Position numbers and translations under genes: made by a program. Shown one piece after another: positions 3,999 to 35,749 of a stretch of DNA of 41,343 nt. Within the stretch, counting starts at the first letter, position 1; the number at the start of each line of letters is the position of its first letter. A model generated the notes under the pieces. It was not told the DNA's origin. It saw nothing but the letters and a program-made list of their open reading frames with translations, and ran no database searches. Source of the stretch: Synechococcus sp. (lineage in GTDB: Bacteria > Cyanobacteriota > Cyanobacteriia > PCC-6307 > Cyanobiaceae); NCBI GenBank assembly GCA_046081905.1, contig JBJTWS010000082.1:1-41343 (forward strand), written 5' to 3'.

Positions 3999-4014
3999 GG
4001 CTTTCCCTCAGGCC
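3992..4014. terminator. Hairpin spanning two convergent stop codons (possible bidirectional terminator)
   Basis: Perfect 9-bp stem GGCCTGAGG-ctttc-CCTCAGGCC, containing the alaS TGA and the opposite-strand TGA. No long U-tract. Confidence 0.5.
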
Positions 4015-5800: not shown

Positions 5801-5874
5801 GGTGTGGCTCCGCTGGGTTCCCTTCACTGTCCGCAGTTCCGGGACCGGGTCCTGGGGGGCAGCGCATCGCTGGG

Positions 5875-5916: not shown

Positions 5917-6642
5917 ATGCGCAGACGCTTCGCCGAGCTGATCGCTCCCCCCATGCCCGCTCCCCTGCACTGCGCGGATCTGGCCCGCCTCCCCCTGTTT
6001 GCGGGGATCGAGCCGGCCCTGCTGGAGCCGCTCCTGGAGGGGCAGCTGCCGCTCTCCCTCTCCGCCACGCAGGTAGTGATGATGGAGGAAGACGAAGGCA
6101 TGGGCCTGCTGGTGCTGCGGCAGGGCCTGGCCAAGGTGCGGGGCTTCTCGGCCGATGGCGAGGAGGTGACCCTGGCGGTGCTCGGGCCGGAGGCGCTGCT
6201 GGGGGACATGGCCGTGCTGGCCGATGGGCGCCGCACCGCGGACGTGGTGGCCCTTACGGAGCTGCAGGCGGTGAAGCTGCGCTCGGAGCCCTTCCGTCGC
6301 CTGCTGACCCGTGAAGTGGCGCTCGCTCTCGCGCTGGCCCGACTCCAGGCCCACCGTCTGCGGGCGCTCAACCGCCGCTTCCTGCTGCGCGGTGCCGATG
6401 CCACCACCCGCCTGCTGGCCGCCCTGCTGGAGTTTGCTCTCCAGAGCGACCCCGCCCGCGACCCCGAGGCCCTGGTGCCGCCGTTGCCCCAGCGGGAGCT
6501 GGCGGCCCTGGCCGGCCTCTCCCGCGAAACCGCCTCCCGCTCCCTCAATCAGCTGCGGCGCCAGGGAACGGTCTGGGGCGGTGAGGAGGGCCTGCGGATC
6601 GCCAACCTGGCAGCCCTGCGCAAGCGAGGGCTCTGGCACTGA
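5917..6642 (+). CDS. Crp/Fnr-family transcriptional regulator (cNMP-binding domain + HTH)
   Basis: LPLFAGI start, cassette LGPEALLGDMAVLADGRRTADVVA, and HTH LPQRELAALAGLSRETASRSL with a CRP-like RE-x-x-x-R recognition helix. Alternative ATG at 5953. Confidence 0.93.
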   Translation: MRRRFAELIAPPMPAPLHCADLARLPLFAGIEPALLEPLLEGQLPLSLSATQVVMMEEDEGMGLLVLRQGLAKVRGFSADGEEVTLAVLGPEALLGDMAVLADGRRTADVVALTELQAVKLRSEPFRRLLTREVALALALARLQAHRLRALNRRFLLRGADATTRLLAALLEFALQSDPARDPEALVPPLPQRELAALAGLSRETASRSLNQLRRQGTVWGGEEGLRIANLAALRKRGLWH

Positions 6643-8854: not shown

Positions 8855-9219
8855 GGGGGAAGGCCGCGGAACACAGGCCGAATTGTGCGCGAAAAGCCCG
8901 GTCCATTCCAGCTGTGGTGGCCCTCTCCTGAAATTGGCGCACAAAGAAAGGTGGGAGATTCTTGGCATCCGGGGGGAAGGATCCCCTGCCCGAAGAACCT
9001 GCCCGAAGAAGAGCAACCAGTCGATTGGGCCTGGGAGAGGTGCATCAGGCTGTCCTCTTTTGCCATCGCCGCCCTTCGTCCCGCAGGGCATCCGCCTGTT
9101 CTGCGGGTAATGATTCGGTGAACTTCTCCTCTGTGGCCCGGGGTTTGGCAACGGCGCCGAAGAATCTCCCAGACAGCGGCCTTACAGTGAGGCAGGCTGT
9201 GTGGTATGGAGTACGGGGT

Positions 9220-12200
9220 ATGACCGGCGCTGCGGGGGGCAAGGGGTCTGCGGTGATCGGGGCTTGGGGCTCCGGGAGTCGTTCGGGCCGCTGGTGCCCC
9301 GCCCACTCCCTGGCGCCCCTGGCCCTGGGTTTGCTGGGTTCCCTGCTGCTGGCAACCCCCTCCCAGGCGGATGTGGCCGGTGCCGGTGGCGCCCGCAGCC
9401 TCGGCACCCGGGTGAACGGGGTGGATGGTGGCCGTTGCGGGTCAGGCTTGTGCGGGGTGAGCGGCGGTACCGGCAGCGGCAGCAATCTGTTTCACCGCTT
9501 TGCGGAATTTGATACGCGGGGCGGCCGTATCCACGGCGTTTCGATCGATTCCTCCGGCTACCGCAACGTGATCGTGGGGGTGATTCACCCCCAGGGCAGC
9601 TTCATCGACCGAACGGTGGCCCTCACCAGTGCCGGCAATCTCTTCTGGCTGTCCCCTGGCGGGATTCAGATCAGTGGGGCGGGCGGCTTCCAGGGGGTGA
9701 GCCAGCTCAACCTCAGCACCGCCACGGGGCTGCGGGTGGGTGGCTTCGTGTTCGACGCCCTCTCCACCACCGCTCTCCAGGCGGCCCAGCTGAGTGGCGA
9801 GCCGCTGGCCGGGCGCGCTGGGCTGGTCACCGATCCCGCCACCCTGGCGGAGATGGGGCTGCTCTCCAACGGCGACCTCTCGATTTCCGGCGGGTTGCTC
9901 ACCGTGGATCAGGGGCTGCTGCTGGATGCGCAGGGCGGCAACGTGCTGCTGCAGGCGGCCGGCCTGCAGGTTCCTGGCGGCTCGGTGGAGCTGGCCGGTC
10001 GCAACGTGGCGCTCACCGACAGCACCGTGGATGTGAGCAGCACCACCGGCTCCGGCGGCAGCATTGCCGTGAGCGGCGAAACGGTGAACCTCACCAGAAG
10101 TGTGCTCGATGCCAGCGGTGGTCTCGGGGGGGGCTCGATCAGTCTTGATGCGGTTCAGGAGGTGAGCCTGCAGGGTTCCGACCTTCTGGCCCGGGGCGGG
10201 GGCGGCTCTGCGGTGGAACTGCAGGATCAGGTAGTTGTAACCACGGAGGATGCGCGGACAGCCGCCTCCATGGAGGATTCCACCGCCACTGGCACGTACG
10301 AGGGGGACGAGGTGGCCAGCCCACCAGTGCCGCCTTCTTCTGAGGAGCCCACCATGGAGGAGCCGGTGGCTGCGCCGGTACCTCTGCCGGCGAGGAATGT
10401 GTCTGGCAGCCTGGCGGAGGGTGATCCCGCTCAAGGCGGCTCGATACAGATCGAGGCTGAGACGGTGCTGATCACGGGAGGATCGATTAATGCCTCTGGT
10501 ACCGACGGCAGTGGTCAGGTGACCCAGACCGATGGGCTCTCCGATTCCTGGACCCTTGGGCCGGCAGCAGGTTCCGTGTCGCTCCAAGGCCGCGGCGGTT
10601 CGGTGGCGATCGAGGGAACCAGCGTGCTGCAGGGGGGCACGATCAATGCCGCCGGTTCCAGCGGCGGCAGCGTTTCGATCATGGCCGGGGACCTGGTGAG
10701 CGGTGCACCGATCTTCACCCCCGGCATCGCTGGCCAGGGGGGTGATATTCGCCTGTTGGCCGAGCGCTCCATCTTGCAAACCACGAGTTCCGCGCTCGAC
10801 GCCAGTGGCCTTGATGGGGGTGGATTAATCCATCTTCAGGCCGGCACGGACCTCCTCGTTTCCGGCATGCTCCGGGCCGTGGGGGAAGGTGCCACGGCGG
10901 AGGGTGGTCTCCTTGAGGTTTCCTCCGGCGGGAAGGTTTCCCTCCTGGCAGCAAGCCTCGATGCAGGCGGTGGAGGTGGTGGCGGCACCATCCATGTGGG
11001 TGGTGGCTTTCAGGGAGCTGCCCTGGAGGGGGGGGGCACCAATGCATCGGTGGCATTGGTGAACGGATACACGAGCCTCAAGGCGAACGCTCGTCAGAGC
11101 GGGAATGGCGGCACGATCGTGGTCTGGTCTGAGCAGTCCACCGATTTCTACGGATCGGCAGAGGCCATGGGGGGCAGTCTGCTCGGTGATGGCGGCTTGA
11201 TCGAGGTTTCTGGGAGGGAGAGTCTCGTTTTCGGTGGCGTCGCTGATGCCTCAGCCCCCAATGGCGCGCCAGGCTCGCTGCTGCTGGATCCCAAGAACAT
11301 CATTATCGACGCCTCGGGAGTTGGCGGCTTTAGCTATTCTATCGAGAACATTATCTTGCCTGACGGCGACTCGAGGGTCAGCCTTATCGAGACTTTCCTC
11401 GCTGATAGTCGCATCCTTGTTAGCGATCTGAGCGCCTCATTTGCAGGTGTTTCGGGGGCGGCCTATTTTTTTGATGGTTCAACGGGCGCCCTTCTCGGGG
11501 CCCTATATGGTGTCGAAGAATTTGGGGAGGGCGATACTATTCTGGGTTCAGGTCTTGCCTCCAGCAAGTTATTTTTGTTTTCTCCTTATGCTGATGTGGC
11601 TGGAGTGGCCGATGCAGGTGCTCTTACCTGGGTGGACCTCAGCCCGGTGGGCTCCAGCACCCCTTCGATTCGTTTCGTGGACGGCAGCTCTATTGCTGTT
11701 ATTGGCAGCAGCATATCCCTCGTGGGAGGCTCCACTGGGGACTTCAGTGGTTATTCTTTAGAAGGGGCTTATGCGGGCGCTGATTCTGCGTTAAATGGAA
11801 GCATCTACAACTATCTTGTTCTTACCCCCGGCTGGGATGGCGCTGGCATCATTGATGTTGGTGCCGTCACTTGGATCGAGGGGGCGTCGGGCCAGCTCTC
11901 CGGCGGCAAGAATGGGGCGCTGATCGGAACTGGCCACTCTCTAGTGGGGAGCAACACAGGAGACTTTGCATCTCCCTACCTACGCGATCTGGACCAACAA
12001 GCAGACTATAATAGGCTAATTCTTACCCCGCTGTGGGATAACGCATTGCAGGTGGATGCCGGAGCTCTCACCTGGATCAATTCCAATAATGGTCTGCTTG
12101 CCGATGGTGCCACGGGAGGGGAGATTACGGCAAGCCGTTCCTTGCTCAACACAGGCAGCGCAATCTATAATTTAAATTCCGTCGACGAAGATGGCACTAT

Positions 12201-15200
12201 CTTCGTCGACAACACTTATCAGTTCTACACGGTTCGCGACGATTTCTTTGAAGGGGGCGGATCTGTGCTGGTTTATAGCGGTGGCTGGGATGCTGGCTCC
12301 GAAGTGGATGCCGGGGCCATCACGTGGATGGACGGGCGTTCAGGCGGGTTAGTGGACGGGAACTCTGGGGGGTTGATTTCCTCTCTGAACTCCTTGGTGG
12401 GAAGCAGCACAGGTGATTTGAGTATATACGAAGGATCTGCCGACCAGGGTTCCTACTATTTCTACTACTACGCCTACATTGATCGGCGGGACGGCACCCT
12501 GCCTGGCGATGGTGCGCCACTTCCTGTCTCCACCGTCTTGCTTGGGCTCCCCTCCTGGGATGGGGCCACCGCCTCCGACGCTGGCGCTGCCCTCTGGCTC
12601 AATCTCGATGCCTCCACAGGTGTTGCTCGCTTGGCGGATGGCTCCCCTGCTGCTGGTGTGATCGGTACAGGCAATTCCTTAGTGGGTTCCAGCTCCAATG
12701 ACCAGATTGGTCAGTCCGGAACCCAGCTCAGTCTCTACTCCCAAGACTTCGCGAACGGTCGCCTGCTGCTTCTGAATCCCAACTGGGACAATGCCACCCT
12801 GGCAGACACCAACTCCGGTGTGATTGCAGTAGATGCCGGCGCGGTGACCTGGCTCAACCCGTTCACCGGCGCCCTCGCCGATGGTTCCTCTGCATTTGGG
12901 GCAATCTCCAGTGCAAATTCGCTGGTGGGTACGAGCACGAATGATCGGATCGGATCATCTGTAGAGGAGGTTTACCCCCAAGAGAACTTCAACTTCTCCC
13001 CCTATGTTCTGCTTACCGCTTCTGGCTGGGACAACGGTGCTGTCGCACCGGATGCTGGTGCCCTGCTCTGGATCCGCGGCAGTGATGGATCCCTGGCCCA
13101 GGACGCGACCAGTACCGTCGCGCCCCCTCCGGCGGTGGGAAATGTGTCTCCCTCCACGGCCCTGGTGGGCAGCTCCGCTGGCGATGGGGTGGGTGCCGGC
13201 CTGAATTTCCTCTACGGGCCATACGACAGTGAGTTGCTTGCCTATCCCACTCCCAACCTCCTGTTGGCCACCCCCAGCTGGGATAACGGATCCATTGTGG
13301 ATGCCGGAGCGGTTACCTGGATTTCTTTGGATACTGGCAGGCTCTCGAATGGAGCGCCTGCCCTTGGATTCCTGGGCAGTGCCAACTCCTTGGTGGGATC
13401 TTCAGCCGGTGATCAGATCGGTTCCCGGGTCGAGGCCAGCTATGCCTACCAGGACGACGCCCCCCAGAACCCCTTGATCGTGGCCCCGGGTTGGGACGGC
13501 CCCTCTGCGGTGGATGCCGGCGCCGTGACCTGGATCAGCCGCGACACCGGCAAGCTGGCCACAGGGGCTGGCAGCTTCGGCTCCATCTCCTCGCTGAACT
13601 CTCTGGTGGGTTCCTCCACGGGAGATCAGGTGGGCCAGAAAAGTGTCACCCTCACCAATTTCTTCACCGGTAGGGGCGGGCCCGTGACTGTGGCTCTGCT
13701 CACCCCGGACTGGGATGCGGGTTCCACTGCTCCGGATGCTGGTGCCGTGACCTGGCTTGACCTACGGAATGGCATCTTCGCAAGTGGGTCTGCGGCGGTA
13801 GGAGCGGTGAGTGCGAGTAACTCCTTGGTAGGACGCTCCGCAGGGGATGCCATAGGAGCGTCCTATTCCCTCCAGTTCAACATCGACAGTGGCGCCTCCC
13901 TAGCGCTCCTCTCTGGCGGCTGGGATAACCCTGAAACCAGTGCCGCCGATGCTGGCGCCTTTACTTGGATGAATGGTGTTACTGGAAATCTGGCCGATGG
14001 CTCCACACCGGCAATTGGAGCGATCTCAAACCTCAATTCGCTGGTGGGTACAAGCATGGGCGATCGGGTGGCTGACGCCAACCTTACTGATCAAAGCTCT
14101 AACGGGATGCTGCTGCGCATGCCCTCCTGGGATTTAACGGGTCCTATCCTTTCCCTTTCCATTGTTTTCGAGTCAAGTGGAGTCGGAGTTGGGGGAACTA
14201 CGTTTTTCGCGGATGGAGAATATATCTTGCTGAGCGACGTTTCAATAATTAGCCTGAATGGCGACGGCGGTTTGGATCCGACATTTCGGTTGATCGGTCC
14301 TGGCGGGGCGATAGATCCCTCTGTTATAAACTTTGACAATGTTGGCCCTAATGAGCCCTTTAACGCAAGTTTCTTCAACGTTCCTCAGGGCACTTATTCT
14401 GTGGAAGTAACTATGCCAGCTGCGGCCGGTGCGGCAAGTAGTTCCTCGGGTTTTTTTGTGACTTTGTCCGCGCCAGCGCAGGAGTCTGTTGGACTCATCG
14501 CTGCCGATGCTGGTGCCGTTGCCTGGGTGAACCTTTCAAATGGGAGTCTTGGTGACGGCTCGTTGGCGATCGGTGATCTCTCCAGCGCGAATGCTTTTGT
14601 GGGCACCTCCTCTGGAGATCAAGTGGGCTTAGCTTACGACTCCGACCTGATCGGAAGCCCGTTCTGGGATGACCCAAACGGTAATATTGCGGATGTTGGC
14701 GCTCTCACCTGGCTCAACCTCGCCACGGGCCAGCGTAGCGATGCAGGTGTTCTGATTGGTGCTCTAAGCAGCTCAAATTCCCTTGTCGGTGGCAGCAGTG
14801 GTGATCGAGTCGGAGCTTTCTCCAGTACGCAATCCAATGTGTCAGGCGAGGTTGTCGAGAGCTATCTGGTGCAGGCCCCGCAAAATAATGGGACCAGGCT
14901 GCTGGGCTCGCCGGATTTCGACGGATCTGGTATCGCCGACTCCGGAGCAGTTACGTTTTTGGACGTGATTCAAGGAAGACTTGTCAACGACCAACTGATT
15001 GAGGGCATCCTGGGGCCCTCCAACTCTCTCCTTGGTGCAACAGTTGGTGAGCGTTTTGGCGTGCTTGCAATCAGTGGGCCTGGGGAGCAGTCAATGGTCT
15101 TTGATGCTAATGAAGGGGTGCTGCTACATAGCCCCGGATGGGATGCCGGTAGCGTCGAGGATGCTGGTGCTTTTGCATGGATGCGCACAATCGATGGTCA

Positions 15201-18200
15201 GCTCTCCGATGGCACCTTTTCCGGGGTCATTGGATCCTCCAATGCACTGCTTGGCAGCACGGCTGGTGATACCGCTGATCTTGGTGCGACCAACATCTTT
15301 GGGAACAATCTGGCATTTTTCCCAAACTGGCATGATCCAACCAGTGGTTTATCTGTTGGGGCCATGGCCTGGGTCTCGGGTTCAACGGGTGCCTTGGCAA
15401 ATCAAGCGAGTGGGGGCACCATTGAATCGGTGGCTCTACGCGGAGCCATGGCTGGGGATTTTGACGGTTATTCTACCCTCTCCCTTGGAGGCAATGCACT
15501 GGTCTTTACCCCTGGTTGGGACAACGGACCGATCATTGATGCTGGCGCAATGACCTGGGTCAACATGTCCAATGGTCAGCTGACCTCCAATCTGGATGCA
15601 TCTCCTGTGACCTTCGAAACCCTGGGAGCCTCTGTATCTCTTGTGGGCAGTGCTAGTGGAGATTTTTCTGGATTCACCCTCGAAAATGTGGGTGGTGGCA
15701 GTGCTGTTCTGCTCACGCCCATGTGGGATCAGGGTATTCTAGAGGATGCCGGTGCTGCCACTTGGTTGCAGGGGGCTACCGGCCAGCTTGCTGGTACCCA
15801 AGGTCCCATTCTAGGCACGATTGGCCCTGAGCGGTCAATCGTTGGTAGTGCCTCTGGCGATTTCGCCTCTGCATCACTGCTCACTGTAGGGAGTAATCGC
15901 CTGATCTTTACCCCATTCTGGGATGATGGTGTTCGCCAGGATGTGGGGGCACTCACCTGGATCGATTCCGCCATGGGTTTGCTCAGTGATGCATCCAGTG
16001 CAGGAAACATCGGAACCGGGATCTCCCTTGTTGGTACCAGTACTGGAGACTTGTTCGACATCGGGCTCCGCTCCTTGTCCGCCGGGCCGGTACTGATCAG
16101 TACCCCTCGCTGGAGCGATGGCGTGCAGACCGATGCTGGCGCGCTCACCTGGATGAACACTTCCAACGGTCTCCTGGCTGATGGCAGCAGCGGTGGCGCG
16201 ATTGGTATCAGTAATTCACTGCTGGGCACGGGATACAGGCCTGGAGATAGCACTGATCTTTTTTATGCCATTAATGAGTTCTCCTTTGTCGCCGAGGATG
16301 GCTCCTCGGGTCAAAGCTTGCTAATCTACAGCCAATACTTGAATCCGGATTACAGCTCCGCCGTTGCGATTGACTCCGGCAGAGGCGCTCTCACTTGGAT
16401 GGATGCTGGTACGGGTAGGTTGGTCAATGGGTCCAGTGGAGGATTCATTGATTCATTAAACTCCTTGGTGGGATCAGCCGCTGGGGACTTCAGGCCGGAA
16501 AGGGACAGCTATTTGCCATGTACTCTGTGTGGCTTCTTTACTCCTTCTCAGATCTACGCTGAGTTCAATCTGATTCGAAGTGGATCGCAGGTCTTGGTTC
16601 GCAGTCCCTTCCTCGATCTGGGCACCTTGTCGAATGTTGGCGCTGTCACTTGGATTGATATGGCCACTGGGCGCCTCGGTGACGGCATCACTCTTGCCTC
16701 AGGCGTTCTCGGTTCAGCAAACTCACTCGTAGGAACGGGAGCTAATGAATTCTATGGGTCCCGATTTCTTGGCCTCCAACCCCAGTTCTACGACACCGAT
16801 GACCGACAGGGTTGGTATTTTGGCTCGAATCCTGTGCCAGAGCTGGATCGTATCGTTGTACGTTCTCCCGACGCTTTGATTAATGGCAATCCTGGAGCAG
16901 GGGCGGTAACCTGGATCGATTTAGCGCATGGTTTGCTGGCTACGGGAGCTCCGGTTGTGGGCGTCGTAGGCAGTACCAATTCCTTGGTTGGTACTTCTAG
17001 CGGGGATGCGCTGGGAGAGGAGTACACACGGCTCACTGGCGACTCTTCCTCATGGAATCTCAGTTTTGAAACTCCCAACTGGGACAACGGAGTGGCCACT
17101 GATGCTGGTGCAGTTACCTGGATTCAGGGCAATACCGGCCAATTCGCACTCGGATTAGCAGGTGTAGGACCGATCAGTTCTGCCAACTCTCTAGTTGGCA
17201 GTTCCAGCAATGACGAAATCGGCAGAAACCTCCGGTTACTGGGTCAAGTGCGATCCGATAGTTTCGGTTCCTATGGCTCCAGTGTGGCTTACATCAGCAG
17301 TGGCTGGGACAATGGATCAGCAACTGATGCAGGCGCCGTTATATGGATGAACGGATTTAATGGACAGTTGGCTAATGGTGCTTCTGCCTTTGGTGTTGTG
17401 AGTAGTGCTAATGCTTTGGTGGGAAGCACGTCCGGTGACGGAATTGGTTCGTTTACAGAGGATGTCGGCTACTCCTCCTCTGGTTCCGGTGTCAATCTGC
17501 TTCTTCTCAGTGGAGAATGGGACAACGGGTCCTTGGTGGATGCTGGAGCTGTGACCTGGATCAAGGGCTCCACTGGGCAGCTCATGAATGGAGAGGCTGC
17601 AATCGGACCAGTTAGCGCTACCTTCTCTTTAGTAGGTTCTCAGACGGGGGATCGGCTTGGTGGAGACTACCTGACCTTCGGCTCGATCTTCAACTTCGGA
17701 GAGGGTCCCTCGGAGTCTTCCTACGGTCGGAATGTCTTGCTGATCTCGCCAGATTGGGATGCGGGGGAAGTTCAGGATGCGGGAGCGGTCACCTGGATTA
17801 GTGGTTCTACCGGCTTGATGGTGGATGACACAGGAACTGGTGTGGTGAGCTTCTCCAATTCCTTGATTGGAAATTCTGCCGGCGATCGGGTTGGATCCTC
17901 GGTTGTCAAGATTTCAGATGATCGCTTGGAACCGAATGCCTTCCTCGTGAACGGTCCCGGTGCGACAGATCCGGGCACTGGCAACCCGACCAACACATCC
18001 ATGAGCATAGAAAATCGCATAGTTCAGGATGTTACGATTTCTAGCCGTCCTCCCCTTTCCATTCTGCCGGACTCAGGCGATTCTGGAGTAATTAATAGTG
18101 CGTTTTTGGTTGGCACTGACCCTGGCATAAATGTCACCATTCTTCCCGGGGCCATTACATCCATAGTGAGCACCGGTACTAATGTGACCTTGCAGGCTGC

Positions 18201-20154
18201 GAACGATATCTTCCTGCGTTCTAATTCCCCGATCACGGCATCTGGTGGAGCGGCCGGCGCGCTCACCCTCCAGGCGGGACGAAGCATCACCCTCAATTCC
18301 AGTATCACCACCAGTAATGGTGACCTCATACTGTTGGCTAACGACCCGGAAATCAATGCTGATCCTGAAAGCCTGGCCTTTCGAGATGCAGGTGCTGGAT
18401 CCATCCTTCAGCTCAGCGGTACCAGCATTGATGCAGGCAGTGGCACGGTCACTATGCGAGTGGGGTCATCGGTACCTGGTGCGGAGGCCAGCACAATCAG
18501 CCTGGCGCAGGTTACCGCTGGCAGTATTGATCTAGCAGGGCCAACAATTGGTCTTTCTGGCGCCAAACTCTTCACTCCGGTGGCGGGGGGGGTGATCAAG
18601 ATGGATGCAGATTCCCTCACGCTGTCCTCAAGTCTGCTTGATGCTTCGACTCTTGTTGGAGACGGTGGCCTCATTCAACTGGATGGTGGTGTAACTACGA
18701 TCGGGGGCAGCGTAATCACTGCCTCCAGCACGGATCCCAGTGGGCGGGGGGGCGTGGTTGAGGTGGGTGTGAACTCCGCGGCCCGTGTCCCTCAGCTGAC
18801 TATCACTTCATCAGACCTGCTGGCTAATGGTGTTCTTGATGGTGGCTCGATTTCCCTGGATGGCGATCAGATCACGATCTCTGGTGGTGTGATCAATTCC
18901 TCCGCTACTGGCGATGACCCAGCTGCAACTGGAGGCAGGATCAGAATTGGCAGTTTTGACGATGACGTTACGGTAATTGGCTATCTGCCGAATGTGGTGA
19001 ATCTGAACAATGCCACTCTGATTGCTGATCCCCCTGCGGTGGGTGGTCTTCTTACGGTCAATGGTGTCACAATCAATGTGAACCAGTCCTTGTTTAATGT
19101 CACCGGCTCCACTGGTGGCACCCTTCAGGTTGGATCTCCTGCTACCAGTGTCTTGGCCTTCGGATCAGGCTCCACTCAACTACTCGGCGGCGTTGATGCG
19201 AGTTACACCTTGCAAGGCACAACGATCTTTGGTTTTGAAAATGTTCGTGGGCCTTCTGGAGCCTCAATCAAGACTATCGGTCAGGTGGTGGGGCCTCCTG
19301 CGCCAACACCTATACCATCACCAATACCAACCCCCACTCCTATTCCTGCTCAGCCCTCTCTCTCTTCTCCGGCACCCACATTTGGCGTAATCTCTACCAA
19401 CGTGGTCGTGCCGACTGAAGTCCCGATAGGGATGACAGTTCCTCTGTTCTTGGCGTCTCCGCAGTTGGCGGAGCTTGTGGCCCTTGTCTACAGCCAGGAA
19501 CCTCTGCAGTTACAGCAGGAACTTCTCGACTATGCCGCTGTATTTAGTCAGTCGTTGGTGTTTTCCCAGCAGGTCAGCTTCAGCGAACTAGTAGCGCTCT
19601 CTCTCAATACAACAGACTTTTTCCTGGGTGGAGATCCCCTGCTTGGGGCGAATGGCGTCTACCAGTTCACGGCCGAGGATTTTGCCTACGCCGACATGCT
19701 TGACACACAGTCTTCCTTCTCAGTTGATAGTGATCTCAGCCTCGACGACTCGCTCGATTTTCTTCTGCAGCTCGATGATTACCCATCTCCGTTCGCGGAT
19801 GGCTCCGTTCTTTTCCCTGCAGACCCATCCGAAACTCGTCTGGCATTGAAGCTGGTGCTGGATCTGGGACTCGAGGGCTTTGTGGCCAACAGCCTTGATT
19901 TCTCCTCGGATATACGAGTGGGTTTCTCCACTTTGTTCATCACTCCAATTACGCTTACGGGTGCTGAGGCGGCTGCTCTCTTCGCTGAGTCAGAACAGCT
20001 GGCTCAGGATTATACTTCCGAAAAGCTTGGCCTAGAAAAGAAGAATGATGGTAAAGCACCAACAGCGATCGAAGTGCAGAGCCTGCTACAGAAAATCCAG
20101 CAGTTTGTGCGTGGCCGGCAGTCGACCGGCCCCGCCCAAGGAGGGGGATCATGA
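9220..20154 (+). CDS. Giant TpsA-like filamentous-haemagglutinin-family exoprotein (TpsA1, ~3640 aa) with a GAVTW repeat array and no CHAT domain
   Basis: Signal peptide (LALGLLGSLLLATPSQA|D) and TPS-like domain (NLFHRFAEF...NLFWLSPGGI). Beta-helix repeats GG.GG.I, then GGLIEVSG...GSLLLDPKNIII. WD..DAGAVTW..NSLVG repeats, a Pro-rich linker and an acidic C-terminal region follow. Start uncertain (ATG 9220 or GTG 9253). Confidence 0.92.
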   Translation: MTGAAGGKGSAVIGAWGSGSRSGRWCPAHSLAPLALGLLGSLLLATPSQADVAGAGGARSLGTRVNGVDGGRCGSGLCGVSGGTGSGSNLFHRFAEFDTRGGRIHGVSIDSSGYRNVIVGVIHPQGSFIDRTVALTSAGNLFWLSPGGIQISGAGGFQGVSQLNLSTATGLRVGGFVFDALSTTALQAAQLSGEPLAGRAGLVTDPATLAEMGLLSNGDLSISGGLLTVDQGLLLDAQGGNVLLQAAGLQVPGGSVELAGRNVALTDSTVDVSSTTGSGGSIAVSGETVNLTRSVLDASGGLGGGSISLDAVQEVSLQGSDLLARGGGGSAVELQDQVVVTTEDARTAASMEDSTATGTYEGDEVASPPVPPSSEEPTMEEPVAAPVPLPARNVSGSLAEGDPAQGGSIQIEAETVLITGGSINASGTDGSGQVTQTDGLSDSWTLGPAAGSVSLQGRGGSVAIEGTSVLQGGTINAAGSSGGSVSIMAGDLVSGAPIFTPGIAGQGGDIRLLAERSILQTTSSALDASGLDGGGLIHLQAGTDLLVSGMLRAVGEGATAEGGLLEVSSGGKVSLLAASLDAGGGGGGGTIHVGGGFQGAALEGGGTNASVALVNGYTSLKANARQSGNGGTIVVWSEQSTDFYGSAEAMGGSLLGDGGLIEVSGRESLVFGGVADASAPNGAPGSLLLDPKNIIIDASGVGGFSYSIENIILPDGDSRVSLIETFLADSRILVSDLSASFAGVSGAAYFFDGSTGALLGALYGVEEFGEGDTILGSGLASSKLFLFSPYADVAGVADAGALTWVDLSPVGSSTPSIRFVDGSSIAVIGSSISLVGGSTGDFSGYSLEGAYAGADSALNGSIYNYLVLTPGWDGAGIIDVGAVTWIEGASGQLSGGKNGALIGTGHSLVGSNTGDFASPYLRDLDQQADYNRLILTPLWDNALQVDAGALTWINSNNGLLADGATGGEITASRSLLNTGSAIYNLNSVDEDGTIFVDNTYQFYTVRDDFFEGGGSVLVYSGGWDAGSEVDAGAITWMDGRSGGLVDGNSGGLISSLNSLVGSSTGDLSIYEGSADQGSYYFYYYAYIDRRDGTLPGDGAPLPVSTVLLGLPSWDGATASDAGAALWLNLDASTGVARLADGSPAAGVIGTGNSLVGSSSNDQIGQSGTQLSLYSQDFANGRLLLLNPNWDNATLADTNSGVIAVDAGAVTWLNPFTGALADGSSAFGAISSANSLVGTSTNDRIGSSVEEVYPQENFNFSPYVLLTASGWDNGAVAPDAGALLWIRGSDGSLAQDATSTVAPPPAVGNVSPSTALVGSSAGDGVGAGLNFLYGPYDSELLAYPTPNLLLATPSWDNGSIVDAGAVTWISLDTGRLSNGAPALGFLGSANSLVGSSAGDQIGSRVEASYAYQDDAPQNPLIVAPGWDGPSAVDAGAVTWISRDTGKLATGAGSFGSISSLNSLVGSSTGDQVGQKSVTLTNFFTGRGGPVTVALLTPDWDAGSTAPDAGAVTWLDLRNGIFASGSAAVGAVSASNSLVGRSAGDAIGASYSLQFNIDSGASLALLSGGWDNPETSAADAGAFTWMNGVTGNLADGSTPAIGAISNLNSLVGTSMGDRVADANLTDQSSNGMLLRMPSWDLTGPILSLSIVFESSGVGVGGTTFFADGEYILLSDVSIISLNGDGGLDPTFRLIGPGGAIDPSVINFDNVGPNEPFNASFFNVPQGTYSVEVTMPAAAGAASSSSGFFVTLSAPAQESVGLIAADAGAVAWVNLSNGSLGDGSLAIGDLSSANAFVGTSSGDQVGLAYDSDLIGSPFWDDPNGNIADVGALTWLNLATGQRSDAGVLIGALSSSNSLVGGSSGDRVGAFSSTQSNVSGEVVESYLVQAPQNNGTRLLGSPDFDGSGIADSGAVTFLDVIQGRLVNDQLIEGILGPSNSLLGATVGERFGVLAISGPGEQSMVFDANEGVLLHSPGWDAGSVEDAGAFAWMRTIDGQLSDGTFSGVIGSSNALLGSTAGDTADLGATNIFGNNLAFFPNWHDPTSGLSVGAMAWVSGSTGALANQASGGTIESVALRGAMAGDFDGYSTLSLGGNALVFTPGWDNGPIIDAGAMTWVNMSNGQLTSNLDASPVTFETLGASVSLVGSASGDFSGFTLENVGGGSAVLLTPMWDQGILEDAGAATWLQGATGQLAGTQGPILGTIGPERSIVGSASGDFASASLLTVGSNRLIFTPFWDDGVRQDVGALTWIDSAMGLLSDASSAGNIGTGISLVGTSTGDLFDIGLRSLSAGPVLISTPRWSDGVQTDAGALTWMNTSNGLLADGSSGGAIGISNSLLGTGYRPGDSTDLFYAINEFSFVAEDGSSGQSLLIYSQYLNPDYSSAVAIDSGRGALTWMDAGTGRLVNGSSGGFIDSLNSLVGSAAGDFRPERDSYLPCTLCGFFTPSQIYAEFNLIRSGSQVLVRSPFLDLGTLSNVGAVTWIDMATGRLGDGITLASGVLGSANSLVGTGANEFYGSRFLGLQPQFYDTDDRQGWYFGSNPVPELDRIVVRSPDALINGNPGAGAVTWIDLAHGLLATGAPVVGVVGSTNSLVGTSSGDALGEEYTRLTGDSSSWNLSFETPNWDNGVATDAGAVTWIQGNTGQFALGLAGVGPISSANSLVGSSSNDEIGRNLRLLGQVRSDSFGSYGSSVAYISSGWDNGSATDAGAVIWMNGFNGQLANGASAFGVVSSANALVGSTSGDGIGSFTEDVGYSSSGSGVNLLLLSGEWDNGSLVDAGAVTWIKGSTGQLMNGEAAIGPVSATFSLVGSQTGDRLGGDYLTFGSIFNFGEGPSESSYGRNVLLISPDWDAGEVQDAGAVTWISGSTGLMVDDTGTGVVSFSNSLIGNSAGDRVGSSVVKISDDRLEPNAFLVNGPGATDPGTGNPTNTSMSIENRIVQDVTISSRPPLSILPDSGDSGVINSAFLVGTDPGINVTILPGAITSIVSTGTNVTLQAANDIFLRSNSPITASGGAAGALTLQAGRSITLNSSITTSNGDLILLANDPEINADPESLAFRDAGAGSILQLSGTSIDAGSGTVTMRVGSSVPGAEASTISLAQVTAGSIDLAGPTIGLSGAKLFTPVAGGVIKMDADSLTLSSSLLDASTLVGDGGLIQLDGGVTTIGGSVITASSTDPSGRGGVVEVGVNSAARVPQLTITSSDLLANGVLDGGSISLDGDQITISGGVINSSATGDDPAATGGRIRIGSFDDDVTVIGYLPNVVNLNNATLIADPPAVGGLLTVNGVTINVNQSLFNVTGSTGGTLQVGSPATSVLAFGSGSTQLLGGVDASYTLQGTTIFGFENVRGPSGASIKTIGQVVGPPAPTPIPSPIPTPTPIPAQPSLSSPAPTFGVISTNVVVPTEVPIGMTVPLFLASPQLAELVALVYSQEPLQLQQELLDYAAVFSQSLVFSQQVSFSELVALSLNTTDFFLGGDPLLGANGVYQFTAEDFAYADMLDTQSSFSVDSDLSLDDSLDFLLQLDDYPSPFADGSVLFPADPSETRLALKLVLDLGLEGFVANSLDFSSDIRVGFSTLFITPITLTGAEAAALFAESEQLAQDYTSEKLGLEKKNDGKAPTAIEVQSLLQKIQQFVRGRQSTGPAQGGGS
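11450..17950 (+). repeat. About 28 imperfect 60-90 aa coding repeats (DUF5650/FG-GAP-like) in TpsA1
   Basis: Manual count of 27 GA(V/L/x)xW-type cores plus one degenerate first unit (SGAAYFFDG). Most are followed by NSLVGS..GD. Confidence 0.85.
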
Positions 20155-21419
20155 ACAGTTTGAGTTCCAGATCTCAGGTGCCTTTTCTCTGGGCCCTGCT
20201 GGCAGTCGCTACCATAGCCCCTGCTCTGGCGGAGCCCGCAGCACACACTCCTCCGGCATCAATTACGGCGGCATCCCTACCCCCGCCCGCGATGTTCGAT
20301 CGAAACCTCTACACTCCAGCGGCAATCCGCCTGAGCTTTACCACTGCATCCTCTGCTTTCCAGACCCAGTCCTCTTTCCTCGATATCAGCCTCATTCTTC
20401 CCCAGGGGGATGTGGTGGGACGACGAGTCCCGATCTCTGTGGAAGATCTGGCTCCCCTGCTGCGCGATCTCTATGGCCAGCTTGCCCGCCAGGATTCTCT
20501 TCAGGTTTCCGACGCCCGCTCCCCGGCACGTCAGCTGTTCGATCTTCTGATCCGTCCAGTGCTGCCGGAGTTGCGGCAGGCGGATGTCACCACCCTGCTT
20601 CTGTCTGTGGACAGCGGCCTGCAGGCGATTCCCTTCGGCGCGCTGCATGACGGTGAGCGGTTCCTCGGGGAATCGATGGCCTATTCCCTCACGCCCTCAA
20701 TCGGCCTGATGCCCCTCGATGTGCCCGATGCCGTGGTGCCGGATCGGGTGCTCTCGGCCGGCAGTGCCCGCTTCGAGGGCTTGGCCCCGTTGCCGTTGGT
20801 GCCACAGGAGCTTGAGAAGATTGCCTCCCTGCTCCCGGCGGAGCAGTTCCTCGATGCGCGCTTCACGCCCGAGGTGCTGATGTTCAATGCCGGAGATCCC
20901 TCGATTCGCAAGGTTCATGTAGCCACCCACGCGGAGTTTTTTCCCGGAGGACCCGATAAAGCGCGCATCTACTCCGGTACCGTCCCGATTGCCTTCACAT
21001 CCTTCTCCTCCCTTCGGCAACGCCGGGATGAGGATCCCCTGGATTTGTTTGCGCTGAGTGCCTGCCGCACGGCCTTAGGCGATAAGGACAGTGAACTGGG
21101 TTTTGCCGGCCTGGCCCTCCAGGCTGGATCCCGCAGTGCCGTGGGCACCCTCTGGTACGTGGATGATGTGGCCACCTCGGCTTTTTTCGTGCAGTTCTAC
21201 CGCTATCTCCAGGCGGGGATGCCTAAGGCTGAGGCCCTCCAGGCCACGCGGCAGGCGTTTGCCGCCGGCCAGGTGCGCCTCCAGGGCGACCAGGTGGTGG
21301 GGCCTGATGGCTTCGTCTTGCTGCGTGGCCTCACCACCGCGCAGCAACGCAGGATCGCGGCGGGCGTGCAGCATCCATACTTCTGGGCCGGCATCCAGCT
21401 GCTGGGCACTCCCTGGTGA
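20151..21419 (+). CDS. Stand-alone, signal-peptide-bearing CHAT (caspase-like clan CD) protease
   Basis: ATGA overlap with the TpsA1 stop. Signal peptide FLWALLAVATIAPALA|E. Motifs LQAIPFGALHDGERFL, catalytic HVATHAEF (His codon 20928), LSACRTALG (Cys codon 21063), LWYVDD and HPYFWA. Confidence 0.94.
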   Translation: MNSLSSRSQVPFLWALLAVATIAPALAEPAAHTPPASITAASLPPPAMFDRNLYTPAAIRLSFTTASSAFQTQSSFLDISLILPQGDVVGRRVPISVEDLAPLLRDLYGQLARQDSLQVSDARSPARQLFDLLIRPVLPELRQADVTTLLLSVDSGLQAIPFGALHDGERFLGESMAYSLTPSIGLMPLDVPDAVVPDRVLSAGSARFEGLAPLPLVPQELEKIASLLPAEQFLDARFTPEVLMFNAGDPSIRKVHVATHAEFFPGGPDKARIYSGTVPIAFTSFSSLRQRRDEDPLDLFALSACRTALGDKDSELGFAGLALQAGSRSAVGTLWYVDDVATSAFFVQFYRYLQAGMPKAEALQATRQAFAAGQVRLQGDQVVGPDGFVLLRGLTTAQQRRIAAGVQHPYFWAGIQLLGTPW

Positions 21420-21489
21420 TTAGCTGCCCCTGCGGACGCCTGGGCTGAGAACTCGCTGAGAGCAGGCCTTTTCCACAGGCTGGGGGCCC

Positions 21490-21503: not shown

Positions 21504-21613
21504 TTCCTCAGGCAGCAATAGTAGCATTAATTTGAAGGTTAGTGCTGAAACTTATGCGCCTCGGCCTCCCCGGTATCAGCACAGGCGATTCCACCGCAAA
21601 TCCGGCGACGTTT

Positions 21614-24600
21614 ATGCGAGTAGATCCGCCCTGCGAGGGCACTGATCATCGCTCTCCCCCCCAGGGAGATGCCACCCAGAGACTTAGGTTATGGGCCTTC
21701 ACCCTCGGTTTGGGTCTTGGGTGGCCTCTGCTCCTGGGCGTAGCACCACCGGTCCGTGCCGAGGTGCGGGGCGTGGAGGGGGCCCGCAGCCTTGGCACCG
21801 TGGTGAACGGCGTTCGAGACGGCAGCTGCGACAGTGGCCTCTGCGCCGTGAGCGGTGGCACGGGTGCCGGCGGCAATCTCTTTCATCGCTTCGGCGCCTT
21901 CGACACCCGGGGGGGGGTCACCGGGGTGCGGATCGAGTCCGGGGGTTACAGCAATGTGTTGGTGGGGGTGATTCATTCCCTTGGCAGCTTCATTGATCAG
22001 CCGGTTTCGCTGAGTAGCAAGGGGAATCTGTTCTGGCTCTCACCGGGCGGCATCACGATCAGTGGTGCCGGTGGCTTTCACAACGTGCAGCATCTGCAGC
22101 TGAGCACGGCCACCGGCCTCCGCTTGGGAAGTGGGCTGTTTGATGTTTTCGGCACCACGGCGGATCAGGCAGCCCTCCTTTCATCTGAGCCCTTGCGGGG
22201 TAGTGCGGGGCTGGTGAGTGACCCGGCCACCCTCTCCGCCCTCGCGCTGGAGCGCAATGGCGACCTCACTCTCTCCGGTGGCCTGCTTACGGTGGAGGAG
22301 AGCCTGCTGCTGGATGCCCAGGGCGGTCATGTGGTGCTCCAGGCGGCTCAGGTTCTCCTGCCCGGCGGGCAGGTGGACATTGCGGGCCGTGAGGTCAGCT
22401 TGGAGAACAGTCAGGTGGATGTGAGCAGCGCTGCTGGTCTGGGTGGTAGCGTCAAGGTGGACACGAAAACGCTCTCCCTGGCCGGCAGCCGGATTGACGC
22501 GAGCGGCGCCATCGGTGGTGGTGAGGTTTCGCTCGTGGCCTCCGGCATCCTGAGCCTGCAGGACGGAGAGGTTGCTGCTCGTGGAACCGTTCCTCCCATC
22601 GAAACGGAGCCGAGCCGCCCGCAGAGCATCGATTCGGAATTGTCCCCTGGTTCTGCTGTGGCGGAGTCTCTGCCGGAAGCCAACTCCATGGGGCGGGGAG
22701 GCCAGGTGGAGATCATTGGGGCAAGTGTGGTGCTGGCTGGAGCGATTGACGCTTCCGGCAGCCAGGGTGGCCAGGTCACGGTTAAGGCCAGCAGCCAGCT
22801 CTTCAGCTCTGCGCCTGTTCAGGTGGAAGGTACGGCTGGGAGTGGTGGTTCGATCACACTCCATGCCGGTGGCAATGTTGTCCAGAGCGTCCAGTCGGAG
22901 CTCAAAGCGAGCGGCAGCACAGGTGGTGGCACCATCCGCGTGACTGCGGACCAGAATCTCTTCAGTTCTGGCCGCTATGAAGTACTTGGCACCGGTGATT
23001 CTGGTGTTGGTGGACTGGTGGAAGTCTCGGCACCGAGCGTCACTTTGCAGGGAGCGCACCTGGATGCCAGCGGCAAAGCTGGCGGCGGCACTCTCCATGT
23101 GGGCGGGGGCTTTCAGGGGGCAGCACTCACCTCCGGGGCTGCCAATGCCCAGATCAGTACGATCACCTCCTCCACTGTGCTCAAGGCAGATGCCGCCAGC
23201 TGGGGTGATGGCGGCGAGGTGGTGGTGTGGTCCGAGGAGGTCACATCATTCTCCGGCCTTGTCAGCGCCCGTGGTGGGGAGCTTGGAGGAAATGGTGGTT
23301 TGTTGGAGGTGTCGGGGAAGGAACTGCTTCAGTTCAGTGGTGAAGCGGATGCAGCTGCCCCACTCGGGACGCCCGGCACGCTCCTTCTGGATCCGAAGAA
23401 CATCATCATCGACGCAGCAGTGTCTGCCGAGCAGGTGGGCTACAGAGTTACCGATCTGGTGGATCCCAATCCTCAGACGAATGACGGCTTTGGCCGGTCT
23501 GTGCTGGTGCTTCCCAACGGTAACATCGTTGCGCTGGACCCGCTGGATGATCTCGACCCGCTTGCGGCATTCGATACTGGAGGGGTTTATCTCTTTGATG
23601 GATCGACTGGACAGCTTCTGTCATTCTTGCTGGGAAGCACCACTGGCGACAGTGTTGGCAGCAATGGTGCGATTTCGCTGGGCAGCAATGGGAACTATCT
23701 GATTCTGAACCCGTCCTGGGATGCGGGAACTGCTACGGATGCTGGGGCCGTCACCTGGGTGAATGGGACCACGGGTCTTCTCGCGGATGGCTCTACAGGC
23801 GGGGTATTGAATTCTGCGAATTCCCTCGTTGGATCCACGGCCGATGATACTGTAGGCGTCTCTTTTGGAGGTTTTGGATATACAGCTGTATACGTTCTGC
23901 CAAGTGGAAACTATGTGGTTAGCTCCAGTCGTTGGGATTCACTCGATGGAGTTATTGATGTGGGTGCCGTGACCTGGGGTGATGGAAGTCTTGGGATTAC
24001 AGGCACGATCAATTCGGTAAACTCATTGATTGGCGCCCTCCCAAGCGATGAGGTTGGCTCCGACGGAGTTACGGTGCTGTCTAATGGCAACTACGTAATC
24101 AATAGTCAATACTGGAATCTCTCCACCAGTATATCTTTTGCTGGTGCTGTAACCTGGGCGGATGGATCGGTAGGGATAAGCGGTGTCGTGAGCTCTGTCA
24201 ATTCTTTAGTTGGCAACGCTCATAATGACATCGTCGGGTGGGCTGTTGGGAGTACAGTTATCCCTTTGGAGAATGGAAACTTTTTGGTTGCCAGCCCTTT
24301 CTGGGATGGTGGAGCAACAGATGTGGGAGCTGTGACCTGGGTGGATGGGAGTAATGGCCGCACCCTGGATGGGAATGCGGGAGGATTCATTGATTCCACC
24401 AATTCTTTGGTTGGAAGCAGCTCTTTTGACCGTATTGGTACGAGCGTGGTCACGTTGGCCAATGGCAATGCAGTGGTTGTCAGCCCCGGCGCCAGCATAG
24501 GGGGCGCTGTGGCTGTGGGCGCCGTCACCTGGATCGATGCCGCTGTTGGACTTGCGGGGATCGTGTCTGAAGTCAATTCTCTCGTGGGCTCTTCGGATTT

Positions 24601-27600
24601 TGATCAAGTGGGAAGCAATGGAGTCACGCCATTGGCCCAGGGAAATTATGTGGTTCGAAGCGAGTTCTGGGACAATCCTGATACGATCGCTTTCGACGCT
24701 GGTGCCGTCACGTGGGGAGATGGGAAAGCCGGTATTGCTGGCGCTGTCAGCAGCCTGAATTCGCTTGTTGGAACCACTTCAAATGATGTAGTTGGCCTCT
24801 ACGATATTGCCGCCCTTTCGAACGGAAACTATGTTGTAGTCAGCTCTGATTGGGACAACCCTGTCGCACTGGCTGATAACGCCGGAGCCGTTACCTGGGG
24901 GGATGGAAGTGTGGGCGTGAAGGGCTCAATCAGTACTGCGAACTCCTTGATCGGAACAGCTGGCGACCGGATCGGGGCTTGGGGCATTGGAACCTTCAAC
25001 TCTTCTTATGAAGCTATCGAGCTGACGAATGGAAACTATGTCGTAATCAGTTCTGAGTGGAGTGGCGATGGCTCCGGCATCCCTTCCCCTTCCTACGGGG
25101 CGGTCACGTGGGTCAATGGCGCCACAGGCAAGCTCTCGACGGGGGATCTGGGCGGCGTCTTGAGTTCCACGAATTCGTTGGTGGGCTCAAGCCCGAACGA
25201 TTGGTTGGGGAATCAAGGCATTGTTGCTCTGGAAACGGGAAATTATGTTGTAGTCAGTCCAAATTGGGATCTCAATTCCTTCACCTCCGACGCAGGGGCG
25301 GTTACATGGGGCGATGGTGTTACAGGACAAACAACAGGCATTGTTGGTACGTCGAATTCCCTTACGGGTTCCTCTCCCAATGACCAGCTTGGCCTTGGCG
25401 GAGTGGTGGCACTTAGCTCAGGGAATTATGTAGTTGTGACCCCTGACTGGGATCTGAATTCCTTTACCTCTAATGCGGGGGCGGTCACCTGGGGAGACGG
25501 TGTGACCGGTCAAACAACAGGCATTGTGGGTACGCTCAACTCCCTTACGGGTTCCTCGTTTAATGACCGGGTTGGCTCTGGTGGAGTGGTGGAACTAACC
25601 TCTGGAAGCTATGTGGTTGTCAGCCCCGCATGGAATCTGAATTCCTTCACGTCAAACGTGGGAGCTGTGACTTGGAGCAGTGGGTTGGAGGGCGTGATAG
25701 GTGTTGTCAGTACCTTACATTCTCTGACAGGAAGCACGGCTTGGGATCAGGTAGGCCTTGGTTCTGTGCAGGCTCTACCTGATGGCAACGCTGTGGTTTC
25801 GAGTCCTCTCTGGGATCGTGGAGGGGTGGTGGATGCAGGGGCAAGTACCTGGGTCGATGGATCTAAGGGCATCACAGGATTTGTAGATGAAACCAATTCA
25901 TTGGTTGGTCAAACCGCTGGTGATTTTGTGGGCGACAATCCTGTCGCCATCTTGGAAAGTGGAAACTATGTTGTTTCCACACCTAATTGGAGTAACCCTG
26001 CGCTGGGCACCTCTGGTTCTGGTGCCGGAGCTATCACATGGGTGGATGCCAGCCGTGGCCTCACAGGTCAGGTGTCATCTGGGAATTCCTTGGTGGGTGA
26101 TCAAGGGTTTGGGTTCTATGGTGCTTGCCCGGACGGCTGTCTAGGCAATGTGACTCCGCTGAATGGTGATCAGTTTCTGGTTGGCTCTACGGAATACGAC
26201 GTGTCTGGAGTGCTGAATGCTGGCCTGCTTCAGCTGGTCATTGGCAATGATTACAGCTTTGCGGCTTCTCCCGGTGCTGATCTCAGCCTTACTCCAGCTC
26301 AGATTGAGGCAATCGCCAATCGTGGTATGGCGGTGGTTCTTCAGGCCAGTAACGATATCACTTTAGCCAGCGGATCCGATATCATGATCGATAATCCCAC
26401 TGGAACGGGTGGTTCCCTTTCTCTGGAAGCAGGGCGCTCCATCCTGTTGAACGGTTCGACCATCACCACGGATGGCGCAGATCTGAACCTGCGGGCGAAT
26501 CAGAAGGTGCCTGATGCCATCTTTCGCGATCCTGGTGCCGCGGTGATCACGATGGCATCTGGCGCGAGCCTGAATGCAGGATCAGGCATCGTTCGGATCG
26601 AACTCGCCTCCACGACCGCTGGTTCGGGCGATGCGGGAGGAGTGACTCTCGGTCAAATCAGTGCGGCTCGTATCAGTGTCGATGCGGCTGCCGGGCTTTA
26701 TCTCTCCCCGGTGGCGCACCTTGAGGCATCTGCCATCAGTGGCGATTCCATTGAGTTGAACGCCGGCTCTGGTGCGTTTGTGAATGGGCGAGGTGCAGAT
26801 GCACTGCTTGTTGGTAGTGGAGCTTCGTGGAGGATCTATTCATCTTCGCCAGAGCTTGATGCGATTAGTGGTCTTCTCCCTTCCTTCATCCAGTACGACT
26901 TCGCCTTTGGAGATATTAAGGTCGTTCTCGGCGCTGGCAATGGCTTCTTCTATTCCATTGCTCCATCGCTTTCGGTAGATCTGGTTGGCCCCGCAACCCG
27001 TATCTATGACGGCACCACGCAAATCAATCTGAACTCTTCGAATCTCAGCCTCTCTGGCGTCCTGAATGGCGACCTCGTTACCCTGTTGCCATCTCCCTTG
27101 CTTGGCAGCCTGAATTCCAAGGATGTTGGCACCAATTTAATCGTTTCGGTCACTGGTCTTGGCATTGACTCTATCTCCAGCAGCGCAATTCTTGGCTCGG
27201 TTCCCGTCTACGGCTACCAGCTGGCTTCCTCCACGGCTTCTGCTGCTATTGGCGAAGTTACCCCGGCGACGTTGAGCGTGACGCTGCTGGACCAGAGCAA
27301 GGTGTATGACGGCACGCAGGCGGCTGTGCTGGGGGTTGGGGATTATCAGATCAGCGGTGTTGTGGCGGGAGAGGGCCTGACGATCAGCCAGACGGTGGGT
27401 CTGTACAACAGCAAGGATGTGGCGAGCGCGAGTGGGGTGAGCGCATCGCTGTCGCCGGGGTTTTATGTGGCTTCAGGGGGGACGGATCTGGGGAACTACA
27501 GCCTGGATCTGCTGGCGGAGGGGACTGGAACGATCACGGTCCGCCCCCTCTCCACCTGGCAGGGCAGCCAGGGTGGCTTCTGGAGTGATGCTTCTCTGTG

Positions 27601-32650: not shown

Positions 32651-32703
32651 CCGGGAAGAGCTCAAGCATTCTGGGTGGAAGCTCCCGTCCCTGCCCAGCG
32701 ACC

Positions 32704-35610: not shown

Positions 35611-35749
35611 GGCGCGGAGCTCCTTGGGGCAGGGATGGGCCGATTCTGGACCGCTCCGGCGGCGCCGGCATCCGCGTTGGCGCCATGGGCTGCCTGATCG
35701 GGCCGGCCTCCATACAGTGGGACCGGCCGATCGGTTCCTGCCGTTCCCG

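Follow-up and report, generated by a model that had tools for sequence, protein, structure and literature searches.

A putative two-partner secretion filament of Synechococcus with a C-terminal tail predicted to dock in trans onto a separately encoded CHAT protease

We analysed a stretch of 41,343 nucleotides from Synechococcus sp. (assembly GCA_046081905.1, contig JBJTWS010000082.1; hereafter the window), which holds a two-partner secretion (TPS) locus with two exoproteins, TpsA1 and TpsA2, and a gene for a CHAT-family protease, CHAT1. TpsA1 ends in a tail that, judged by structure prediction, very probably docks in trans onto CHAT1, the product of the next gene; in TpsA2 the same two parts lie in one chain. 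Our reading, to which we give a probability of about 0.5, is that TpsA1 and CHAT1 are separately encoded parts of the unit fused in TpsA2, and that docking of the tail would tether the filament and likely trigger a signalling cut. Prediction and genomics give the docking good support; the signalling output is a reasoned guess. The features concerned are:

8962..20154, plus strand: TpsA1, an open reading frame (ORF) of 3730 residues with probable start ATG 9220, a TPS-like N-terminal domain, DUF5650 repeats and the C-terminal docking tail
19936..20103, plus strand: TpsA1 docking tail, with a predicted beta-strand at 19936-19959 and predicted helices at 19963-20034 and 20065-20103
20138..20154, plus strand: Shine-Dalgarno-like AAGGAGG and ATGA stop/start overlap, read in the sequence
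20151..20231, plus strand: predicted Sec-type signal peptide of CHAT1, likely cleaved after P-A-L-A27 (rule-based)
20151..21419, plus strand: CHAT1, a stand-alone separase-like protease (pseudo-protease and catalytic domain), with His260 at 20928 and Cys305 at 21063
21542..30433, plus strand: TpsA2 fused to CHAT (tail 29150-29320, CHAT 29339-30430), probably a secondary fusion

TpsA1 closes with two helices, AEAAALFAESEQLAQDYTSEKLGL (19963-20034) and AIEVQSLLQKIQQ (20065-20103), followed by 16 residues to the TGA stop. The predicted strand ahead of them refines the two-helix description given by a first-pass annotation of this DNA. Their counterparts in TpsA2 lie at 29180-29251 and 29282-29320, from where the frame continues into YRPAVLRMTF at 29339. 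The alignment of these segments that the first-pass annotation had drawn was borne out: BLASTP pairs the TpsA1 tail with TpsA2 at 25 identities in 68 positions (37%), and the last 75 residues of TpsA1 reach a local score of 71 against the whole of TpsA2, where 300 shuffles gave 39.5±4.8 with a maximum of 62. The tail also scores 37.5 bits with a hidden Markov model (HMM) built solely from fused proteins. No Pfam family matched the tail, and a PDB sequence search returned nothing for tail-CHAT and two chance matches for CHAT.

CHAT1 has 422 residues. Its ATGA start overlaps the TpsA1 stop, AAGGAGG lies 6 nucleotides upstream, and 53 residues (the earlier estimate was about 50) precede YTPAAIRLSF, the equivalent of the stretch into which TpsA2 runs straight from its tail. 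The protein is 63% identical to the CHAT of TpsA2 over 369 residues, and the two score 167.1 and 166.3 bits with PF12770 (cut-off 24). A Pfam scan of CHAT1 found CHAT only, preceded by the 53 residues, and no tetratricopeptide repeats (TPRs). The columns of His256, His260 (which we take to be the catalytic His, from the CHAT family motif) and Cys305 are invariant in 51 split and 52 fused rows; since the dyad is invariant, cutting seems to matter. The signal peptide proposed earlier passes a home-made rule. So do those of 50 of 51 split relatives, whereas 224 of 1187 control ORFs pass; the comparison favours the split set because several starts were allowed per split protein and one per control. 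P-V-L-A/E-P stands at the cleavage position in P0004 and P0006; P0004, a stand-alone protein of another genome, shares 80% identity with CHAT1 along its whole length and likewise starts with a signal-like stretch. Given the predicted signal peptide and no TPS domain, the simplest site for CHAT1 is the periplasm, where the tail would then be held too, and on these sequence features we consider a periplasmic location likely.

As relatives we collected 119 distinct CHAT hits with E values of 1e-40 or lower, fetched loci for most, not all, of the matches (39, plus 92 regions), and assigned split and fused classes with an HMM of tails from 44 clearly fused proteins. The hits comprise 53 fused, 51 split, 6 other, 6 outgroup and 3 truncated forms. 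In the split loci the tail of the upstream ORF scores 7.7-52.8 bits, against at most 5.5 in the best other frame, and ends 4-26 residues before the stop; a TPS-like domain is present in 21 of the 24 upstream ORFs fetched whole, and the 4-nucleotide overlap is the first candidate start in 27 of 51. A single conserved tail-CHAT module runs through the 104 split and fused loci, with 40-65% identity in the C-terminal module. The motif F-x4-Y-x-P occurs in 45 of 51 split proteins, in 20 of 24 long-linker fusions and in 0 of 29 short-linker fusions. Because 51 relatives are split, the separate TpsA and CHAT genes are an evolved split and not a simple frameshift, in line with the earlier proposal. 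An assembly error or a recent frameshift of a fused gene could be suspected from the state of the source assembly, which is 83% complete and in 380 contigs (the window is contig C82), but the 53 extra residues, the ribosome site, the 50 other split loci, P0004 and the matching contigs in four sequencing runs of one study leave it with next to no probability, and we rejected it on the strength of the split relatives. The contigs of these runs, two of which may be the window's own source, span the TpsA1/CHAT1 junction without an indel and also match the fused TpsA2 junction.

Two further observations concern the fused forms. The linkers between tail and CHAT in fused relatives such as L073, L077, L066 and L001 are 31-70 residues long and may be decayed signal peptides or precursors of them, and two TpsA-CHAT fusions, L155 (G234) and L156 (G288), are interrupted by stops or frameshifts.

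The first-pass annotation had called the window pair the natural split of a TpsA-CHAT fusion. The split stands; the direction probably does not hold for this pair. Fusion is probably the ancestral state, because four more distant cyanobacterial homologues are fused, with a similar two-helix segment by eye. In a careful tree of 33 of 116 rows (L025, L043 and L117 were excluded as truncated), CHAT1 comes out as sister to four fused proteins, one of them TpsA2 (95/90), and together they sit inside a 21-row clade (99/96) whose remaining members are all stand-alone. As fused TpsA2 is nested in a split clade, it is probably a re-fusion and not the parent of the TpsA1 split. Grouping the 20 stand-alone rows by constraint was 21 log-likelihood units worse (approximately unbiased test, p-AU 0.043), a value that is borderline because the constrained group was named after the tree was seen. 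A quick tree of 60 rows requires at least seven changes of state.

AlphaFold2 modelled the TpsA2 tail with its CHAT (52 rows) at pLDDT 90.6 and pTM 0.92. In this model the tail is a strand and two helices packed on the protease (91-97 except in the loop), and the protease combines a separase-like pseudo-protease with the catalytic fold. The model matches Csx29 (7y9x_B; Z 28.7, root-mean-square deviation (rmsd) 3.5, 338 residues aligned), separase (5fc2_B; Z 25.5, rmsd 3.1, 303 aligned) and DdvA (Z 20.1, rmsd 3.9, 298 aligned); the aligned ranges of Csx29 and separase, at 11-14% identity, begin within the tail. That the tail docks on CHAT in trans had been suggested before, and co-folding lends the idea predictive support: TpsA1 tail and CHAT1 as two chains gave an ipSAE of 0.93, while the best of 3 controls scored 0.00; at least 96% of contacts were shared between runs, and the partner pLDDT was at least 87. 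Among solved complexes 116 of 157 attain this mark, as do 2 of 215 mismatched pairs, a calibration that holds only roughly for the custom alignments used here. The predicted contacts on CHAT1 comprise the pseudo-protease sheet (51-64 and 78-95), the linker 182-194, the catalytic domain at 313-324, and Trp422, and exclude His256, His260 and Cys305. Because this interface lies away from the His-Cys dyad, pseudosubstrate inhibition by the tail is unlikely on the model.

The surroundings of the two TpsA genes bear on what a docked protease might do. The genes of the window run in the order Crp, a small gene whose product has a signal-like N-terminus, TpsB (minus strand), TpsA1, CHAT1, TpsA2-CHAT, SIMPL, MscS with a cyclic-nucleotide-binding domain, a DUF928-like gene, a CHASE2 cyclase and GAF-HD. 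For neighbour counts we used the 59 split or fused loci of at least 15 kb and searched them for homologues of 12 window genes:

5917..6642, plus strand: Crp-family regulator, candidate output; match near 12 of 59 loci
7151..9151, minus strand: TpsB, an outer-membrane transporter of the ShlB/FhaC type (PF03865 E 5.5e-15, POTRA_2 E 4.7e-6); near 51 of 59 loci
31163..32665, minus strand: MscS channel with cyclic-nucleotide-binding domain, candidate output; match near 23 of 59 loci
33081..33734, plus strand: small exported DUF928-like protein, candidate substrate, with the N-terminal motif FPGRRVGGGTRGEC
33691..35760, minus strand: CHASE2-adenylate/guanylate cyclase, a membrane sensor and candidate receptor (PF05226 and PF00211); near 40 of 59 loci

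The TpsB bounds are ORF limits, and its true start is probably later. With its POTRA domain and ShlB barrel it supplies the linked partner by which a TpsA is recognised. TpsA1 (3730 residues, 18 DUF5650 stretches) and TpsA2 (2963 residues) are large repeat-rich exoproteins with DUF5650 repeats and N-terminal stretches that look signal-like by eye. Against the TPS domain profile PF05860, TpsA1 scores 19.2 bits (E 0.0012) over positions 27-231 of the profile, short of the 33.5 needed, and an NCBIfam search for the TPS domain of TpsA gave no match. The DUF928-like gene is present in 112 of the 117 genomes with CHAT (the five misses are 80-87% complete) and near 41 of 59 loci. Its product begins, once mature, with FPGRRVGGGTRGEC, in which Gly14 and Arg17 are invariant in 51 rows, ahead of an Ig/FN3-type core. 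A Pfam search that included PF06051 (DUF928), at E up to 1, gave no match; an Atlas cluster named DUF928 at 0.85 is a lead only, and the fold search returned generic FN3/Ig matches, the best at Z 7.2. A profile comparison found no similarity between this protein and the tail.

We propose the following mechanism. TpsA1 and CHAT1 would both cross the inner membrane by their predicted signal peptides. Two-partner systems export the filament N-terminus first; TpsB would do so here, and the folded tail-CHAT would remain in the periplasm as a stopper under it. The strand and helices of the tail are predicted to complete the pseudo-protease domain and to contact the helix after the catalytic Cys loop. 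The weakest steps come next: docking, or strain upon the docked tail, would switch the protease on; CHAT would cut after the invariant Arg of the GGGTR/G motif in the DUF928-like protein; and the product would act on the CHASE2 cyclase, whose cyclic AMP (cAMP) would reach Crp and the MscS channel gated by cyclic nucleotides. We favour a signalling cut, with the tail as activator, because the Arg motif of the DUF928-like protein is invariant, the genes are co-inherited or linked, and the CHAT of HetF cuts after Arg117. The full chain from docking to the cAMP outputs we rate slightly below an even chance.

Several points weigh against this reading. Signal peptides of cyanobacteria may also target the thylakoid lumen. 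The trans score supports binding without proving it, because the two parts of a split gene often satisfy the complex test by resembling solved proteins, here Csx29 and separase. The tail is variable (mean column identity 35%, one column at 90%), and interface positions of the pseudo-protease domain show no enrichment in conservation (0.62 over 43 positions versus 0.61 over 102). The DUF928-like gene is near only 12 of 26 split loci and occurs without a CHAT of the subfamily in 3 of 5 near-complete genomes checked (G158, G323 and G455). The genomes are kin and not independent samples. The Arg specificity of CHAT1 would be borrowed by analogy from HetF and separase; for the S1 position the literature names D2151 in separase and K670 in Csx29.

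The predicted geometry would be identical if CHAT were a release protease that, once docked, frees the filament it sits on by a cut close to the tail, with the signalling genes controlling the protease rather than being its output. The fused form would then hold protease and site in a single chain, and there is a parallel in the two-partner protein CdrA, freed near its C-terminus by periplasmic LapG (PMC11898600). We nevertheless consider release unlikely: there is no conserved Arg in the 80 residues ahead of the tail, where no single distance has an Arg in more than 6 of 51 proteins, though the site need be neither Arg nor fixed in position, and the invariant Arg motif belongs to the DUF928-like protein. 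Rather less probable still is an allosteric inhibitor, with a docked CHAT that is silent and fires once the filament is pulled out or lost. Csx29 and DdvA do rest inactive and are switched allosterically (10.1101/2022.09.03.506347, PMC11506125), and the modelled tail touches residues 313-324, directly after the Cys305 loop. Yet the tail avoids His256, His260 and Cys305, unlike securin (PMC10317155); it packs over a beta-sheet face which the fused forms shield in cis, so a free CHAT would likely be incomplete; and release in fused proteins would require an earlier cut.

The tail and CHAT might instead be exported as an extracellular effector or surface protease, a split CHAT leaving by another route and binding the tail at the surface. 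Caspase-like domains do occur as C-terminal toxin domains of secreted polymorphic toxins (PMC3482391), but CHAT1 lacks a TPS domain, the module at the C-terminus is conserved rather than swapped, contrary to a variable toxin tip, and the locus genes found serve transport and signalling (only the 12 window genes were counted, and immunity genes were not searched for); we judge export improbable. CHAT could also be a mere structural anchor, a bulky stopper with incidental protease activity, since at about 45 kDa the folded unit would plug the pore, active or not; the invariance of His and Cys in all split and fused rows makes this highly improbable.

Among 401 genomes of the family, CHAT was found in 117, the tail in 115 and both in 112, with CHAT only in 5 and the tail only in 3; the tail profile was derived from CHAT neighbours, which overstates the independence of this co-occurrence. 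The 3 tail-only genomes have a CHAT that is diverged or broken. That one free protease could serve several filaments had been suggested earlier, with a search for further TpsA genes ending in the tail as a check. The window genome gives no such picture: it has two tails, each with its own CHAT (1:1), and a search of this 83%-complete genome found no further tailed TpsA gene. Elsewhere the idea finds support. The single-contig genome G060 holds five genes with a TPS-like domain and a tail match, of which none is followed by CHAT and one has its second helix in another frame. Its one CHAT of the present subfamily sits in a core locus together with the sole TpsB match, a CHASE2 gene and three DUF928-like genes; two further CHAT-family genes are of other kinds. 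G186 has 4 tails and 3 subfamily CHATs. In G147 the six nearest relatives of an unlinked tail and of an unlinked CHAT come from the same six loci, and a linked pair shares four others, so that pairing of tails with CHATs by subtype is suggested by sequence. G168 and G054 were rejected as extra-tail genomes; their tails precede CHAT genes cut at contig ends.

We made some side observations on these genomes. At G060:C1:2355670-2390000 (L142, L143) three tandem TpsA genes have near-identical tails, the last being broken or misassembled with its second helix out of frame, and at G060:C1:2417087-2419094 three tandem DUF928-like genes possibly encode diversified signals. The unlinked CHAT of G147 (L064:9300-9540, minus strand, and L147:2600-2700) starts MTTRRAI like a TpsA of the same genome, and its signal peptide may derive from a TpsA 5' end. 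In G348 (L148:990-7003) a TpsA with a diverged tail-like end faces a stand-alone CHAT with a signal-like start on the other strand.

A wider proposal, tentative and in our view doubtful, is a split separase-like mechanosensor: any tailed two-partner filament would plug into a shared periplasmic CHAT, load or contact would be relayed via the 60-residue tail to the protease, yielding an Arg-ended DUF928-like peptide as CHASE2 ligand, tail subtypes would set the pairing, and lineages would repeatedly swap fused and split wiring. The shared CHAT would then be, just as tentatively, a second core component beside TpsB.

Other features of the window and its genome may be recorded here. At position 21482, between CHAT1 and TpsA2, a base is missing from all four runs, probably a window error outside both ORFs. 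A 619-residue Pro/Gly/Asp-rich ORF (4008-5867, minus strand) and a 141-residue ORF with a signal-like N-terminus (6707-7132, plus strand) are without Pfam matches. A TPR and glycosyltransferase-41 gene and a family 2 glycosyltransferase lie close to the locus (37780-41343); a homologue of the former is near 4 of 59 loci and could modify filaments. The same genome (G000) has seven further CHAT-family matches of other kinds on contigs C68, C303, C144, C292, C146 and C4, along with a second partial TpsB next to a CHASE2 gene and five further CHASE2 matches. The closest named relatives of the window are Synechococcus and Cyanobium records, and the runs carrying it are freshwater metagenomes, with no RNA data set among those listed.

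To our knowledge, LapG of the CdrA/CdrB system in Pseudomonas aeruginosa is not a CHAT protease. That system resembles the arrangement proposed for TpsA1 and CHAT1 in pairing a two-partner filament held by its C-terminus with a periplasmic protease (PMC11898600, PMC4694147). The CdrA anchor is a cysteine hook, whereas TpsA1 has no Cys beyond residue 2523 and only 5 of 51 split tails have at least two in their last 100 residues; the described material mentions neither a stable docking tail nor a fused form (PMC11898600). DdvA, a periplasmic TPR-CHAT anti-sigma factor of Myxococcus xanthus (PMC11506125), shares a CHAT outside the cytoplasm, a resting state and proposed trans-envelope signalling, as we propose here. 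It is anchored in the membrane, contains TPRs and controls a sigma factor, whereas CHAT1 is soluble, lacks TPRs and would have its N-terminal helices supplied by a TpsA encoded apart from it. Csx29/TPR-CHAT (Craspase) and separase share the fold, the His-Cys dyad and, on the mechanism proposed here, allosteric control from a segment before the protease; both are cytoplasmic, with the regulatory segment in cis and RNA or securin as input. HetF of Anabaena PCC 7120 is a cyanobacterial CHAT that cuts one substrate, PatU3, after Arg117; in the described material it is a membrane protein with periplasmic TPRs and a cell division role, with no link to secretion (PMC9457339). MtxA of Magnetospirillum is an exported Ig-like protein encoded next to a CHASE2 adenylate cyclase, with no protease or TpsA described alongside in the available text (PMC4439547); the DUF928-like model likewise has an Ig/FN3-type core, and its match to 4z29 (MtxA) at Z 5.8 ranks 40 among tied FN3 domains and does not establish kinship. 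A periplasmic CHAT (DdvA) and protease control of a two-partner filament (CdrA/LapG) are already known. There is also work on TpsB substrates in Anabaena and on Slr1753 in Synechocystis. Our literature search found no description of TpsA-CHAT or of the tail; several queries were aimed elsewhere, and subscription journals were mostly outside its coverage.

The locus represents a variant of two-partner secretion that is real, conserved and open to testing, and whose protease is predicted to be completed in trans. The natural split shows how small a unit could be assayed: a tail of 60 residues with a soluble protease of some 42 kDa, each easily produced. It also reduces a guess about a TpsA/CHAT/DUF928/CHASE2 neighbourhood to one binding and activity assay. 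If true, two-partner secretion would have a third core partner, a secreted filament would complete a separase-type protease in trans, and docking would allow a surface filament to control the cutting of a protein within the cell envelope. The finding would also help to learn which signals CHASE2 sensors respond to in picocyanobacteria, which are abundant in aquatic habitats; the protease occurs in 117 of the 401 family genomes searched.

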